64,000 nt of DNA from Acidimicrobiales bacterium (GCA_033344915.1 JAWPML010000001.1:3550263-3614262); one strand, 5' to 3'. Shown: positions 58,172 to 62,869, counted from the first letter of the stretch. Translations and numbers: made by a program. Notes: generated by a model from the letters alone, not told the origin.

Positions 58172-58954
58172 TCAGGACTCGGTGCGGCGCACGAAGACGG
58201 GGCGGTCGGTCTGGCTGCGCTCGGGGTCGTAGCGATAGCCGTCCTCGGAGAAGTCGAGGAGCGCCCGGGGGGACTTGATCCGGTTGCGGATGATCCAGCC
58301 GCTCATCGTGCCGCGGGCCCGCTTGGCGAAGAAGCTGATGATCTTGGGCTCGGCGTCGTCCTTGGCATCGAGGAAGACCGGGCTGACCAGGCGGCCGTCG
58401 AGCTTCTCGGCGACGACCGCGTTGAAGTACTCGTTGGACGCGAGGTTGATGAGCGCCTGCGAGCCGGGTGACTCGGCGAGGTCGGCGTTGATCAGGTTCG
58501 TGATCGTGTCGCCCCAGAACGAGTAGAGGTCCTTGCCCCGCTTGGTGGTGACCCGTGACCCCATTTCGAGCCGATAGGGCTGCATGAGATCGAGTGGCCG
58601 CAGCACGCCGTAGAGCCCGGACAGGATGCGCAGCACCTTCTGGGCGTGGGTGAAGTCGCGCTCGCTGAACGTGGCCGCCTGCATCCCCATGTAGACGTCG
58701 CCCGTGAAGGCGAGCACCGCGGGACGGGCATTGTCGGGCGTGAAGGGTGTCTCGAAGTCCTGGAACCGTTCGTGGTTCAGCTCACCGAGCGACTCGGAGA
58801 CGCTCATCATCTCGGAGATCTCGTCCGGCGACTTGTCGGACATCACGTCGACGAGCTCTTCGGCGCCGTCGAGCAGGCGGGGTTCCGAGTACTTCTTGGT
58901 GGGCAGCTTCGATTCGAAGTCGAGCGACTTGGCGGGGGAGACGACGATCAGCAC
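58172..58954 (-). CDS. yaaA: Peroxide stress protein YaaA (UPF0246/DUF328)
   Basis: MLIVVSPAKSLDF...LAFTGDVY...LRILSGLYGVLRPLD. Confidence 0.88.
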   Translation of the reverse strand: MLIVVSPAKSLDFESKLPTKKYSEPRLLDGAEELVDVMSDKSPDEISEMMSVSESLGELNHERFQDFETPFTPDNARPAVLAFTGDVYMGMQAATFSERDFTHAQKVLRILSGLYGVLRPLDLMQPYRLEMGSRVTTKRGKDLYSFWGDTITNLINADLAESPGSQALINLASNEYFNAVVAEKLDGRLVSPVFLDAKDDAEPKIISFFAKRARGTMSGWIIRNRIKSPRALLDFSEDGYRYDPERSQTDRPVFVRRTES

Positions 58955-58987: not shown

Positions 58988-61900
58988 TCAGCCGTCGCAG
59001 GGGCCGACCGTGTGCTTCTGCATGAAGTCGACCAGTCGCTGGCTCGACTTCTGCACGCGGTTGGCGACGGTGCGGGTGCGGCCCTCGACGTCCTGTTGCA
59101 CGTTGTCGGCCGGCGTGTAGTCCTGCGAGTGCTGCGCCCCGCCGATGACCGGGTCGGCCATGTTGATGTCGAGGATGTGTTCCACGCATCGCATCACGCC
59201 GTTCTCGCACTTCCAGATGGCGACCCAGGTGAGGTCACACTGCTGGCTGACGTAGCCCCACTCGGCCCGGAAGCTCACGTGGTTGGCCTGGATCCAGCGG
59301 CTGAACGCGCCGATGATCGACGATCCGACGGCGGCCGCGCCCTCCAGGGCGACGACCGGCACCTGGAAGATGCTCGTCGGGATGTCGATACCGAGCTCCT
59401 CGCCGGCCACCGTGGCGCCGCCCGAAACCCCGGCCTCCACCGCGTCGCTCACGCCCCGACTCACGGTTCCCTTGATCGCGCCGCCGACGCTGATCGCGGC
59501 CGACCCGGTGGCGAACATGTCGCGGTACCAGGCCAGTTCGCCCGAGATCCGCTGCCCCTCGTGCACGCCCTCGGCGCCGTCGGGCATGACCGTGCACCAG
59601 TAGTTGATCAGCACCCGCTCGCTGAACGTGTCGATCACCCGTCGCTCGATGTTGCCCTCCGGGAAGCAGCCGCCGTCGCAGTCCTCACCGGTGCCCTCCG
59701 GGCCACCCCACTTCGTGCCCGGGCCGTCCTTCAGGCCGAGGCACTCGTCCAGGGCGCGCTTCCACTCGGCCGCGCGTGCCTCGGCGTCGTCGGCCTCCTG
59801 GTCGGCCTTGTCCGCCGCTTCCCGGGCGTCGCGGGCCTCCTGCTCCGCCTTCTCGGCCGCCTCGTCGGCCTCGTTCATCTCCTTTTCGGCGTCGTTCAGT
59901 GCCTGCTCGGCGTCCTCGAGCTTCTTCTGCTTCGCCGCCTGGTCCATGTCGTCGGCTTCGCGGCGTTGATCGCGGGCGCCCGGCTCGTCGAGGTCCTCCC
60001 AGTCCTGCTCGGTCTGCTCGGCGGACTCCTGTGACGGGTCGTCGCGATAGCGGTCCCATGCCTCGCCCGCGGCCTCGCGCCGCAGCCGGAGATCGCGCGA
60101 CGTGATGCGCTCGCCGGTCTCGCTGTCCTCGATCCAGCTGTCGTCCTCGTTGGGCGGCGGACGGTCGCGGTCGCGCTCCGCCTTGTCACGGTCGTTCTTC
60201 GCTTTCTCGGCGCGCTCGCCGGCGTCGTTCGCGTCGTTGCGGGCGTCGTTCGCCTTCTGTTCGGCTTCGTTGGCCTCCGTCTCCGCCCGCTCGGCTTCGG
60301 CGCGCTTCGCCTCGGCCTCCGCCTTCGCCGCCTCGTAGGCGCGGCGGATGCGATCGCAGGGACCCTCGCCCACCGGGGCCGTGGTCGCGACCGTCGGGCC
60401 GCCGCTCGTCGTCGTGGGCGGCGGCGCAGTGGTGGGTGGTGCAGTGCCGCCGCCGTCCTCCTCCTTGCCGGCGCCGTCGTCACCGGTGCGGCTCACGAAG
60501 TAGCCACCGACCACCACGATCGCGCCGGTGATCAGCGAGATCCACGGCCAGAGCGGAGCGTCGGTCTCCGTGGTCCCTTCGGATTCGGACCCGTCGGTCG
60601 TGGTGCTGTCGGACGAGCCGCCGTCGGCGTCGCCGTCCGTACCGGAGTCGGAACCGGGACTGTCGGACCCCGTGCTGTCGGACCCCGTGCTGTCGGATCC
60701 CGTGCTGTCGGTGCTGGTCGCGGTGTCGTCACCGCCGTCGCTCGTGCCGTCCGTTCCGGTCTCGACCAGATCGTCGAACCAGCCGGTGATCCCGGCCTGC
60801 AGGTCGTCGAGGTACGCCGAGTCGATCCTCGAGATGTAGTTGCACTCGAGTTCGCCGGCGAAGTAGTCGTAGCGGCCCTCGGGTCCGAGCATGTACCGCT
60901 CCCGGTAGCCGGACCCCTCGCCGGTCGTCTCGATGGAGAACCCGTCGGTGAGGGTCGCGATGCCGAAGGAGAGCTGCCCGGAATCAAACTGGTAGAGCGA
61001 GACATCGAGCGCGTCGGATCTCGCGTCGCTCGGCATGCCCGCGTAGAGCTCGTAGGTGGTGGTCCACTCGTCGACACAGGAGCCGCTGTCGGTGCCGTCG
61101 AGGGTGTGGGTGACGGGGAAGGCGAACGGGTCGTACGCCGACATCACCGGCGTGCCGACGAGGTACGGCGGGTTCGCCTCCGTCATCTCGGGCACGTGGG
61201 GGTGCGACGTCGCGATCGTGTTGTCGGGCTGGTAGCCGCCGCTGGCCGGGGTGGTGAAGGCGAACGAGCGGTAACTCGTCGCCCCGGCCATCTCGGACCC
61301 GTCGGTGATGCCGATGAAGATGTCGTCGAAGATCAAGCCGACGGTGCTGGTCGGCATCGGGGCGAACTGGCTGCCGCCGTTCACGAAGTGGGCGATGTGC
61401 CAGTACGGATCGCAGCGCAGCACCCACGCGTGGGATGCGCCGCCGAAGAGGTCGTAGACCGCGGCGGGCGAGGGCCACGGCTCGCCGCCCATGTTCAGTG
61501 TCGTCAGCCCCAACTCGTGGATCTGTCCGTCGCACTCGCCGTTCAGTGGGAGCCCACCCATGATCCGGCCGCCCCAGATGTCGACGACCCCGCTCGGGAA
61601 CATGCCGTTCTCCGGGGGGACGCCGATCACCGGCCGGTCGAACAGCGTGCCCGGCGTCATCGGATCGAAGTCGAGATCGAGCCCCGACCACGCGGTGTCA
61701 CCTCCTTCGAATCCACTGTTCGGCATCACCGGGGCGAACCGATCGAACACCGCCGATCGAGCGCCGTTGAGAACCGTCGTGGTGTCGGCGTCGTCGAACC
61801 CGAAGCGGTGGAGGTCGACGCCGTCGAAGTCCGGCGTGCCGTCGAAGTCCAGATCGTTGAACACCGCCATGTCGCCGATGTTGGTGCGGAAGTGGAACGT

Positions 61901-62155
61901 GTCGGTGAGCGTTGCCTGCCCGGTGTCGTCGTTCGTCGGCGCGCCGAACGGTGAGAACGGCTCGAGTTCTCCGGCTTCGGCGATGAGGTCCGAGCGACCG
62001 CTGGCGAGCGATTCCAGCACGTCGAACAGCCCGGCGCCCTGCTGTCCCCCCGTGTCCGGAGCCCCGGCCTGGCTCGCCGCGCCGAGCGAGGCCAGCCCGA
62101 GGCTGGCGAGCAGCGTGGCGATGGTGAACAGCGAGAGCCCGACGCGAGGACGCAT
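58988..62155 (-). CDS. Orphan 1055-aa bitopic protein: signal peptide, large extracytoplasmic domain, S/T/D linker, TM, charged coiled coil, Cys-containing C-terminal domain
   Basis: Start chosen at MRPRVGLSLFTIATLLASLGLASLGAASQA. TM is LWPWISLITGAIVVVGGYFV. About 250 aa are E/A/K/D/R-rich. The upstream 257 codons of the track ORF overlap the divergent gene and are rejected. Confidence 0.6.
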   Translation of the reverse strand: MRPRVGLSLFTIATLLASLGLASLGAASQAGAPDTGGQQGAGLFDVLESLASGRSDLIAEAGELEPFSPFGAPTNDDTGQATLTDTFHFRTNIGDMAVFNDLDFDGTPDFDGVDLHRFGFDDADTTTVLNGARSAVFDRFAPVMPNSGFEGGDTAWSGLDLDFDPMTPGTLFDRPVIGVPPENGMFPSGVVDIWGGRIMGGLPLNGECDGQIHELGLTTLNMGGEPWPSPAAVYDLFGGASHAWVLRCDPYWHIAHFVNGGSQFAPMPTSTVGLIFDDIFIGITDGSEMAGATSYRSFAFTTPASGGYQPDNTIATSHPHVPEMTEANPPYLVGTPVMSAYDPFAFPVTHTLDGTDSGSCVDEWTTTYELYAGMPSDARSDALDVSLYQFDSGQLSFGIATLTDGFSIETTGEGSGYRERYMLGPEGRYDYFAGELECNYISRIDSAYLDDLQAGITGWFDDLVETGTDGTSDGGDDTATSTDSTGSDSTGSDSTGSDSPGSDSGTDGDADGGSSDSTTTDGSESEGTTETDAPLWPWISLITGAIVVVGGYFVSRTGDDGAGKEEDGGGTAPPTTAPPPTTTSGGPTVATTAPVGEGPCDRIRRAYEAAKAEAEAKRAEAERAETEANEAEQKANDARNDANDAGERAEKAKNDRDKAERDRDRPPPNEDDSWIEDSETGERITSRDLRLRREAAGEAWDRYRDDPSQESAEQTEQDWEDLDEPGARDQRREADDMDQAAKQKKLEDAEQALNDAEKEMNEADEAAEKAEQEARDAREAADKADQEADDAEARAAEWKRALDECLGLKDGPGTKWGGPEGTGEDCDGGCFPEGNIERRVIDTFSERVLINYWCTVMPDGAEGVHEGQRISGELAWYRDMFATGSAAISVGGAIKGTVSRGVSDAVEAGVSGGATVAGEELGIDIPTSIFQVPVVALEGAAAVGSSIIGAFSRWIQANHVSFRAEWGYVSQQCDLTWVAIWKCENGVMRCVEHILDINMADPVIGGAQHSQDYTPADNVQQDVEGRTRTVANRVQKSSQRLVDFMQKHTVGPCDG

Positions 62156-62221
62156 CCGCGTGTCCTTTCCGACAAGTGGTTGCCCCACCAGTCTCGCCCA
62201 TCGCCGGACCCGACACCGGGA

Positions 62222-62869
62222 ATGGACAAGACTGGGGGAATGGACCGCCAAACGATCGGTAAGGCAGCGATGGCGCTCGGCGCTCTGCTGATCCTGATCG
62301 GGATCGCCGGTCTCCTGTTCGCCGGCGGCTCCACCTCCACGGTCGTCGCCGACGCGGACGGCACGGATGACGCGGACCCGGCCGCCTCCTCGACCTCCTC
62401 GTCGACGACCAGCACCACATCGACCAGCACCACGTCGACCACGACGACGACCACCACCAGCACGACGTCGACCACCACCACGACAACGACGACGACCACG
62501 ACAACGACCCCGCCGGCCGGGGAATCGGTCGTGGAGTTCTTCGACCTCCTGCTCGGCGCCTTCGCCTCGGGCGACGCCGACACGCTGTTCGCCCGACTCA
62601 ACCAGGCCACGCTCGATCGGTACGGCGTCGACCAGTGCGAGACCTACATCGGCCAGGTCGCGGGCACGGCCCAGGACCTCGAGCTGGTGTCGTCGGAGGA
62701 GATCGGCGACTGGGAGTACGCCACCGACGAGGTGACCTCCACCGTCACCGGCACAACGGCCGTGTCGGTCGTGCGCACGCTCGGCGATCAGACCATCGAC
62801 CAGACCCTGCACTGGAAGCGGGTCGACGGGGTCTTCACCTGGTTCACCGACTGCGGCGTCCCCGCGTAG
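62222..62869 (+). CDS. Hypothetical membrane-anchored protein with a ~50-residue S/T linker
   Basis: TM (AAMALGALLILIGIAGLLFAG), a poly-Ser/Thr run, and a ~120-aa globular C-terminus. Start ambiguous (62180, 62222 or 62240). Confidence 0.5.
   Translation: MDKTGGMDRQTIGKAAMALGALLILIGIAGLLFAGGSTSTVVADADGTDDADPAASSTSSSTTSTTSTSTTSTTTTTTTSTTSTTTTTTTTTTTTTPPAGESVVEFFDLLLGAFASGDADTLFARLNQATLDRYGVDQCETYIGQVAGTAQDLELVSSEEIGDWEYATDEVTSTVTGTTAVSVVRTLGDQTIDQTLHWKRVDGVFTWFTDCGVPA

Follow-up and report, generated by a model that had tools for sequence, protein, structure and literature searches.

The gene and its reading frame

The analysed stretch, referred to here as the window, comprises 64,000 nucleotides (nt) of an Acidimicrobiales bacterium genome (GCA_033344915.1, JAWPML010000001.1:3550263-3614262). 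Its minus strand carries, at positions 58988-62155, an open reading frame (ORF) of 1055 amino acids (aa) plus stop codon, the target of this analysis, which encodes a predicted type-I single-pass membrane protein. A small gene for a 209-aa partner protein (62240-62869, plus strand) lies next to it in divergent orientation. The analysis described below turns one "hypothetical protein" into a defined two-gene family with domain boundaries, a structural model and a conserved partner.

The ATG of the target at 62155 is located 7 nt past the ribosome-binding site GGAAAGGA, and the start MRPR is common to the protein and its orthologues. An independent gene call in a public Logan assembly (L004) gave an identical 1055-aa product. 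An in-frame upstream extension to 62926 was rejected, as it overlaps the real divergent gene and is used by no orthologue. Scans of genome contigs revealed two intact orthologues, from Acidimicrobiales bacterium DHS20C19 (L002, 89% identity) and Acidimicrobiaceae bacterium Ww174 (L003, 47% identity). The ratio of nonsynonymous to synonymous substitution rates (dN/dS) against L002 is 0.16 for the whole protein, at dS 0.355. It is 0.23 in the ectodomain, 0.13 and 0.10 in the first and second coiled-coil arms (CC1 and CC2), 0.063 in the C-terminal end domain and 0.025 in the tip module between the arms (residues 656-745). The target is a real gene kept by purifying selection, and the transmembrane (TM) protein of 1055 aa proposed in an earlier annotation made from the DNA alone (the sequence-only reading) holds good.

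A decayed copy was found in a metagenome contig (L001, 6480-8115). It is interrupted by an in-frame stop and, close to its 5′ end, by two frameshifts, and has lost about 300 ectodomain residues as well as the segment from the middle of CC1 through the end of CC2. Despite this decay, its TM segment and end domain (P0002) show a dN/dS of 0.19 against L003, and the partner gene of the same contig is under purifying selection (dN/dS 0.20). Splitting or pseudogenisation in relatives, which the sequence-only reading had named as grounds for doubting the ORF, was thus seen in L001, which is split and partly deleted; L002 and L003 are intact. No second copy (paralogue) of any target module is present within the 64-kb window.

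Outer half of the protein

All segments of the target lie on the minus strand. The signal peptide (residues 1-28; 62072-62155) consists of an MRPR n-region, a hydrophobic core and an AAS/QA c-region; its most hydrophobic 19-mer covers residues 9-27, and it is kept in both L002 and L003. There is no lipobox Cys, and the first Cys of the protein occurs only at residue 208. The ectodomain that follows (residues 29-465; 60761-62071) is acidic (net charge -52) and contains four Cys (208, 248, 360 and 438), which are invariant in the orthologues; it is about 40% identical to that of L003. A word-indexed search found no homologues of the ectodomain, and no match was obtained in Pfam, NCBIfam or PDB. 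This ectodomain type was seen only in P0003, P0004, L003 and the L001 remnant.

The ectodomain is joined to the membrane by a stalk rich in S, T, G and D, delimited by its composition (residues 466-533; 60557-60760). Its (STGSD)n sequence is encoded by a 15-bp tandem repeat at 60660-60711 (3.5 copies, 97% matches). The stalk differs in length among the window, L002 and L003; in the comparison of the window with L002, this suggests that the repeats drive changes in length. In the partner protein, the long S/T run is likewise encoded by short tandem DNA repeats (62406-62509).

An aromatic belt (PLWPW), a single TM segment and a following Arg make up residues 534-556 (60488-60556), with the TM segment itself at about residues 535-555; relatives across the family carry a GFPW-like motif before it. 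A poorly conserved Pro/Thr/Gly spacer (residues 557-597; 60365-60487) leads to the charged helical region. The signal peptide, the extracytoplasmic domain without a recognisable motif, the (STGSD)n linker, the one TM segment and the Pro/Thr spacer had all been named in the sequence-only reading, and each was confirmed within these boundaries.

A coiled-coil hairpin with mirrored cysteines

The charged helical region spans residues 598-804. It had been described as a coiled coil of about 250 aa; strict heptads do occur, in two arms of about 60 aa, but the coil is not continuous, since a 90-aa non-heptad tip separates the arms. CC1, the first alanine-zipper arm (residues 598-655, heptads at about 600-662; 60191-60364), begins with GPC(600)DR. 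The tip module (residues 656-745; 59921-60190) runs from RDRPP through SWIEDSETGERITSRDLRLRREAAGEAWDRYRDDPS to QDWEDLD. CC2, the second alanine-zipper arm (residues 746-804, heptads at about 742-808; 59744-59920), ends with LDEC(805). Small or hydrophobic residues, mostly Ala, occupy 89% of the a/d positions of CC1 (11% of the others) and 95% of those of CC2 (17% of the others). The a/d alanines are invariant between the window and L003, whereas surface positions vary.

The tip, of about 90 aa, is acidic and Trp-containing and is the best-conserved part of the target (98% identity to L002, 73% to L003). It also marks out the wider family. In an alignment of 27 diverse family members, positions G16, D23, W35, Y38 and A47 are invariant.

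C600 immediately precedes CC1, C805 occupies the final core position of CC2, and both are conserved. For a survey of Cys across the family, each protein was anchored on the tip motif and its Cys were listed on both sides. The number of Cys in CC1 equalled that in CC2 in 12 of the 14 distinct patterns, and the spacings in the two arms mirrored each other within one residue. Patterns with two Cys per arm had spacings of 14/13, 7/6, 7/8, 28/27 and 3/4, those with three had 14,14/13,14 and 7,28/6,28, and patterns with one Cys per arm also occurred. Within each pattern the offset sums of paired Cys are constant to within one residue. The lengths of the arms covary (Pearson r 0.66, n = 23); in the window's subfamily both arms are about two heptads longer than in most relatives.

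Where the spacings are multiples of seven, the Cys of an arm should lie on one helical face, here at core positions. These patterns argue for an intramolecular antiparallel alanine coil, about 9 nm long, in which Cys-Cys contacts form the rungs. The window protein keeps the basal rung only (C600/C805). Such a fold would bring the end domain back to the membrane-proximal base of the hairpin, and the deletion in L001 fits it: distal CC1, tip and CC2 were lost together, and the end domain is still joined to the TM segment. The Cys pairs are candidate disulfides, metal bridges or a redox switch. A Zn(Cys)4 site at the hairpin base was considered and rejected, as two Cys seven or more residues apart (i/i+7) on one helix cannot bind the same ion; only a dimer could form such a site.

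The C-terminal end domain

The end domain (residues 805-1055; 58991-59743) was delimited by word search, family alignment and an AlphaFold2 model. It comprises 251 aa with 8 Cys, in agreement with the "several Cys" attributed to it at the outset. The domain opens with DCDGGC, a long β-hairpin, a helix and a Gly/Ala-rich loop of low model confidence. An invariant Pro926-Thr927, a long helix and three long strands with WKC(983)ENGxxRC(990) follow, and a long helix and a terminal GPC(1053) complete it. The word-indexed search found only two homologues of this domain, 55-57% identical. Among 39 members, P108 is invariant and T109, C165 and G168 nearly so (alignment numbering). The Cys shift between two subgroups while their total stays at four: one subgroup has WxC..GxWxC and the terminal GPC, the other TCxE.WxC and another terminal C.

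The AlphaFold2 model was built with a 34-sequence family alignment and reached a mean predicted local distance difference test score (pLDDT) of 69 and a predicted template modelling score (pTM) of 0.62; a 3-sequence alignment gave a pLDDT of 32. In model numbering, it is confident for the long β-hairpin (18-40), the three long strands bearing WxC..GxWxC (144-195) and the C-terminal helix (201-229), and moderate for the helix after the invariant Pro-Thr (114-140). Foldseek searches with this model yielded no convincing structural relative (best E 0.37 with template modelling scores below 0.2 in PDB; best E 0.33 in BFVD). The best matches, SPLUNC1, JHBP and Takeout, had E 0.37-1.6, probability at most 0.1 and template modelling scores below 0.16, and a TULIP/BPI-like fold was not supported.

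The segment that the sequence-only reading took for a hydrophobic hairpin is modelled instead as one long core helix following the invariant Pro-Thr. Residues 934-952 were rejected as a TM or re-entrant hairpin: their hydrophobicity sum is +5, the charge distribution is wrong and the segment is amphipathic in relatives.

A family with exchangeable ends

Acidimicrobiia are abundant in oceans, soils and wastewater; to our knowledge, hardly any work has been done on the biology of their envelope and signalling. When residues 656-1055 were searched exhaustively with phmmer against 1.84 billion representatives, 62 clusters were identified at E ≤ 1e-3, and 17 of these reached E ≤ 1e-10. The TM-hairpin core is common to the 62 clusters, their ectodomains are unrelated and several C-terminal domain types occur. 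About 15 clusters align across all 400 residues at 30-35% identity, with differing ectodomains. At least four unrelated ectodomain types, including that of the window, could be distinguished. Many relatives share only the tip and the arms, and besides the window's end-domain type, present in 39 of the 62 clusters, there are at least three further recurrent C-terminal domain types.

The outer half of the family plan consists of a signal peptide, a variable ectodomain, an S/T/P stalk, a G-F-P-W-like motif, a TM segment and basic residues. The inner half comprises (D)PC.EL, CC1, the tip (consensus W-x-E..G-x-R-I-T-x-x-D-L...W..Y), CC2 ending in ..YE.C, a P/G linker and a variable end domain. A low-GC subfamily, P0022, P0053 and P0061 (L013), has a thioester-adhesin-like ectodomain with the motifs GYCL(N/D)F and TQxAIW; that of P0053 matches Pfam TED at E 0.002 and contains the motifs YC..F and Q.AIW. 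Five relatives (P0026, P0040, P0032, P0056 and P0062) possess a signal peptide and the CC1-tip-CC2 module without a TM segment, so that in these secreted proteins the module must be extracytoplasmic. The C-terminal end of P0062 is an outer-membrane β-barrel domain (PF13568, E 1e-12). Depending on the lineage, the module thus seems to function on either side of the cytoplasmic membrane.

One of the other end-domain types, "CGPDVT...HTLNDLIYG.CAG", has members at L010 (2752-5349) and L013. The next gene at L010 is of the Fic family, fused to glycosyltransferase domains. The partial downstream gene at L013 (2902-3096, 65 aa) has, from its translation, no family assignment, and any relationship to Fic would be conjectural.

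Searches of the whole target against Pfam, NCBIfam, PADLOC, PHROGs, and PDB sequences and profiles returned coiled-coil and low-complexity noise only, and ten diverse relatives compared with the curated libraries likewise showed no signalling, enzymatic or cytoskeletal domain. Scans of metagenome contigs with the end domain and with the tip gave no match. No relative was detected by tblastn against plasmids or against 50,697 phage records, or by a scan of viral contigs, and nothing relevant was found in the literature. A match of the domains to characterised families would have spoken against the sequence-only reading, and there is none in Pfam, NCBIfam, PADLOC or PDB. Its term "orphan" fits the curated libraries and fails for the protein as such, which has two full-length orthologues in metagenome-assembled genomes of Acidimicrobiia and a family of 62 clusters. 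By these comparisons the family seems to be undescribed and found mainly in Acidimicrobiia, with remote relatives elsewhere. The ectodomain, tip, end domain and partner domain, all without a match in Pfam, NCBIfam, PADLOC or solved structures, are candidates for new families. Newness here denotes the lack of a detectable family or fold relationship; no new function has been demonstrated.

The partner gene and the divergent control region

The mechanical ORF of the partner begins at 62180, while the orthologues align from the ATG at 62240 (MDRQT...), from which the start was inferred. The protein has a short basic N-terminus, a Gly-rich TM segment, an S/T run of about 45 residues and a domain of about 110 aa. 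This domain contains two invariant Cys and ends with TWFTDCG.P (TWFTDCGVPA in the window). The dN/dS of the partner is 0.27, and the protein is conserved in L001, L002, L003, L005, L006, L010 and L011. A profile of the domain found 120 clusters of 89-202 aa, most of them of 160-202 aa; the few named ones belong to Acidimicrobiia.

The partner domain is weakly NTF2/SnoaL-like. Its SnoaL_3 match (E 0.016, 16 bits against a cut-off of 22) was obtained in one of seven members, and in PDB the profile matched a de novo NTF2 protein (5trv) weakly, at E 0.038 over residues 2-106. Against PADLOC only noise was found (E ≥ 0.0036, on the S/T run).

The partner adjoins a target-family gene in all the Acidimicrobiia-type loci examined, namely the window, L001, L002, L003, L005, L006/7, L008, L010, L011 and L014/15. 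These loci span three ectodomain types and three C-domain types. The partner is divergent at L001, L002 and L003, just downstream of the target-family gene at L005, L006/7 and L011, and downstream and overlapping at L008. At L010 it overlaps, upstream, a member with a different end domain, and at L014 it is upstream of a member with yet another. Where the genes overlap they do so by 1-4 bp; the other arrangements are divergent or tandem. The association was also recovered from the other side: the gene of a distant partner (P0118, 23% identity) is overlapped at its upstream end by one for an 814-aa family member (E 3e-19). The flanks beyond the pair vary from locus to locus.

The partner thus tracks the constant TM-hairpin core and not the variable ends, and is therefore neither an immunity protein nor a ligand-specific co-receptor. 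As the simplest reading, we infer that the TM segments of partner and target associate.

The divergent region between the two genes is 84 bp long and contains two outward-facing copies of TGGRCRAGACTGG (62188-62200, minus strand; 62223-62235, plus strand), each upstream of its own gene. They are the only copies in 64 kb (0.3 expected), and both are conserved in L001 and L003. Each holds an xAxxxT -10-like hexamer suitably spaced from its gene. The two copies are likely twin divergent promoters or an operator, and their arrangement suggests that transcription of target and partner is coordinated. The window and L002 lack a 19-nt stretch that L001 and L003 possess and that contains the Shine-Dalgarno sequence of these two loci. 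Its absence leaves the -10-like hexamer 6 nt from the partner ATG, so the mRNA is possibly leaderless.

Membrane topology

Lys and Arg were counted in the 15 residues before and after the TM segment of 30 TM-bearing family members. In all 30, there are 0-1 before and 1-8 after it; RRSRKKPKDTRPPPR of P0053 is one example. Together with the signal peptide, this pattern would place the hairpin module in the cytoplasm, and an N-out, C-in topology is predicted.

Comparison with known systems

Methyl-accepting chemotaxis proteins (MCPs; PF00015) resemble the target in that a variable outer sensor is joined to a cytoplasmic antiparallel coiled-coil hairpin whose tip is the most conserved part. The likeness is one of plan only, seen in the heptads, mirrored Cys, covarying arms and tip dN/dS of 0.025. 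MCPsignal (PF00015) gave no match to the target in Pfam or NCBIfam at E ≤ 1 or in the PDB profile search, and HAMP had no Pfam match. The target has a signal peptide, with its c-region present, and one TM segment rather than two TM segments. Its arms are about 60 aa long against well over 100, with core Ala and Cys rungs, and its tip is a 90-aa non-helical-repeat module. Unlike in MCPs, a 250-aa globular domain follows the hairpin and no che genes are nearby.

The CHCH (twin-Cx9C) and twin-Cx3C proteins of the mitochondrial intermembrane space are helix-loop-helix proteins. CHCH proteins form a helical hairpin in which mirrored Cys of the two helices pair with each other, as the covariation suggests for the target family. 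The Cys of the target family, however, are spaced by 3, 7, 14 or 28 residues rather than 9, with no Cx9C pair. The target itself has arms about three times longer and a single Cys pair, is predicted to be cytoplasmic there, and shows no sequence relationship.

Ala at a/d heptad positions is also a feature of Lpp/OprI lipoproteins and of "Alacoil" helices. Matches of the target arms to PF11839 (21.0 bits, cut-off 23.1) and NF040598 (18.9 bits against 43) are sub-threshold, and an Lpp-type profile is above threshold in the relative P0043. Lpp is a short periplasmic lipoprotein forming a parallel trimer, whereas the target lacks a lipobox and its Cys covariation points to an antiparallel intramolecular hairpin. 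The SMC/MukB comparison (TIGR02168, 9.3 bits against a cut-off of 567; JetC and LmuB below 10 bits) reflected charged helices only. A phage tape-measure profile (phrog_1533, E 6.5e-4, 18 bits) aligned over charged and Gly-rich parts, and the neighbouring genes are metabolic. PADLOC defence models gave noise only (E ≥ 0.07).

A GFPW-like motif, a TM segment and basic residues are shared with sortase/exosortase sorting signals; in the target, about 500 more residues follow. VirB8-like proteins and the mycobacterial Mce-associated membrane proteins are bitopic accessory proteins with an NTF2-like ectodomain. Like the partner, they have a short cytoplasmic N-terminus, one TM segment and an α+β ectodomain of about 110 aa, and their genes adjoin that of a larger membrane protein. 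The partner differs in its marginal NTF2 likeness, its S/T stalk and its Cys pair, and no type IV secretion system or mce genes are located nearby. Polymorphic toxins and modular surface proteins resemble the target family in having a conserved centre and exchangeable N- and C-terminal domains. In the target family, however, the centre lies behind a stop-transfer TM segment, no known toxin, immunity or secretion domain is present, and the small neighbour does not change along with the end domain.

A model of the complex and its alternatives

We tentatively favour, at somewhat less than even confidence, the view that a complex of two membrane proteins, so far undescribed, acts as a receptor or anchor and that the target is its large subunit. 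After cleavage of the signal peptide, the acidic variable ectodomain would stand outside on its S/T-rich stalk and bind an external ligand or surface. The TM segment would pack on the Gly-rich TM segment of the partner, which would add a constant NTF2-like ectodomain. The antiparallel hairpin may form a rigid finger reaching about 9 nm into the cytoplasm, clamped at its base by the Cys pair, through a disulfide or a bridging metal. Its tip might dock a conserved cytoplasmic factor or drive oligomerisation. The chain would then return to the membrane, where the 250-aa α/β end domain, with four conserved Cys, a flexible Gly/Ala-rich loop and a long amphipathic helix, could serve as a lineage-specific effector. 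A polymorphic outside would in this way be coupled to a polymorphic inside through a constant core of TM segment, hairpin and partner.

Several observations weigh against this model. The family members searched contained no signalling, enzymatic or cytoskeleton-binding domain that could be recognised, so that the receptor or anchor role rests on the architecture of the protein. The contact between the TM segments of the two proteins and the factor bound by the tip are purely inferred, and no third conserved gene was found at the loci examined. The positive-inside signal of the window protein is weak (2 Lys/Arg, net charge -3 after the TM segment), and the module also occurs in the five relatives that bear a signal peptide and lack a TM segment, where it is extracytoplasmic. 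Mirrored Cys pairs are classic disulfide stapling, which suits an oxidising compartment better than the actinobacterial cytoplasm. Cys parity gives no clear answer: the number is even on 25 of 30 ectodomain sides and 19 of 30 C-terminal sides. Finally, the end-domain model is only partly confident, and the Gly/Ala-rich stretch 55-120 has a pLDDT below 50.

The sequence-only reading had suggested a scaffold or a protein that transduces signals or force across the membrane. This idea is strengthened by the predicted N-out/C-in topology, the swapping of both ends on a constant core, the conserved tip and the bitopic partner. It is weakened by the lack of any known domain, an end-domain model without a structural match, and the presence of the module in secreted TM-less proteins.

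A possible but, in our view, unlikely alternative is that the target is a structural envelope protein or adhesin without a signalling role. It would display a surface module on a glycosylated S/T stalk, and the TM segment, hairpin and end domain would only anchor it or organise it laterally, e.g. in sub-membrane oligomers, with the partner as co-anchor. The S/T/P-rich stalks of both target and partner agree with such a role, as do the thioester-adhesin-like ectodomain of some relatives (P0053, TED at E 0.002) and the absence of a signalling domain from the members searched. Alanine-zipper coils typify structural envelope proteins, among them Lpp, for which the weak PF11839 match was obtained. 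However, the strongest constraint falls on the cytoplasmic tip and end domain and not on the surface part, and the cytoplasmic end domains are swapped among relatives, which a passive anchor would not need. Moreover, the hairpin brings the chain back to the membrane and so would not be a spacer.

The hairpin Cys rungs and the four end-domain Cys might instead form a redox or metal sensor, which we consider improbable. The hairpin would be switched between open and clamped states by a bound metal (Zn, Cu(I) or Fe-S), perhaps shared by a dimer, or by reversible disulfides. Paired Cys at core positions of a predicted cytoplasmic coiled coil are what such a sensor would use, and the end-domain Cys keep their number while their positions shift. 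The peroxide-stress gene yaaA, moreover, follows on the same strand after 33 bp that contain no terminator-like site. That adjacency is not conserved, even in the 89%-identical L002 locus. One helix cannot chelate a single ion through Cys at i/i+7 or i/i+14, only one rung exists in the window protein, and no metal-binding family was matched.

Reversal of the conserved module, with the C-terminal half in an oxidising compartment and the mirrored Cys as structural disulfides, is in our judgement just as improbable. The module would then be a bacterial analogue of the CHCH (twin-CxnC) hairpin, bound directly by the partner ectodomain, and the constancy of that ectodomain would be explained by a constant binding surface. 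The mirrored Cys ladder, the end-domain Cys whose positions shift at a kept total of four, and the TM-less relatives with a signal peptide, one of them with an outer-membrane β-barrel, all accord with this arrangement. Nevertheless, a cleaved signal peptide and a single TM segment force the C-terminus into the cytoplasm, and the Lys/Arg cluster follows the TM segment in 30 of 30 members, with up to 8 in 15 residues. With their Cys pairs and thioester-like domain, the ectodomains are plainly of an extracellular kind, and the C-side Cys count is odd in 11 of the 30.

Little credence is given to a polymorphic effector or defence protein, in which the surface domain would detect contact or attack by a phage or competitor and a toxic or abortive end domain would be released. 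Both ends are polymorphic on a conserved core, as in polymorphic toxins and many defence systems; at one locus a Fic-family gene comes next after one of the end-domain types, and the Gly-rich segments resemble membrane-active toxins. These similarities are offset by the lack of any PADLOC match and of phage, plasmid or viral-contig relatives, by loci set amid housekeeping and metabolic genes (e.g. between ligT and recA in L005), and by a small neighbour that is constant across end domains and hence no immunity protein.

A non-functional gene, whether a chance ORF in GC-rich DNA (the window has a G+C content of about 69%, at which spurious long ORFs are common, and many long chance ORFs among its frames) or a decaying pseudogene like the L001 relative with its frameshifts, in-frame stop and large deletions, is effectively refuted by the dN/dS of 0.16 overall and down to 0.025 locally, the intact orthologues at 47-89% identity, the 62 related clusters and the dN/dS of 0.19 in the end domain of even the L001 remnant.

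An extension of the receptor or anchor model, doubtful when taken as a whole, is that the pair founds a novel class of two-component transmembrane devices, one that is common in Acidimicrobiia and has distant relatives in other groups. The Cys-laddered antiparallel alanine-coil hairpin would act as a redox- or metal-gated mechanical switch that couples interchangeable surface-recognition domains to interchangeable cytoplasmic effectors, assisted by the constant NTF2-like bitopic co-receptor. If true, this class would be a signalling or surface-surveillance system made wholly of undescribed folds. The polymorphism at both ends on a constant core suggests a general coupling device, and the presence of a mirrored Cys ladder in a coiled coil predicted to be cytoplasmic prompts the chemical question of whether it serves as disulfide, metal site or redox switch.

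Flanking genes

The yaaA gene (PF03883, E 3e-82; 58172-58954, minus strand) starts 33 bp past the target stop, and no terminator-like or consensus sigma-70 site was found between the two. A functional linkage was rejected, as the adjacency was seen only in the window's own lineage and not in the L002 locus. The decayed copy in L001 is directly followed by an MMPL transporter gene.

Genes encoding sigma factors of the extracytoplasmic function (ECF) type were observed within about 4 kb of the pair at L002 (7336-9623), L014 (7770-8249) and L016 (209-799); the end of the L002 gene is overlapped by a gene for a 633-aa TM protein. A linkage to ECF sigma factors was likewise rejected: none is encoded near the pair in the window, L003, L005 or L011, and the proximity is probably due to chance. 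In L005 (133-13800) the pair lies between ligT and recA in an otherwise conserved cinA-recA-rny-miaB-miaA-dapF-lexA neighbourhood, which indicates a chromosomal setting and not an island.

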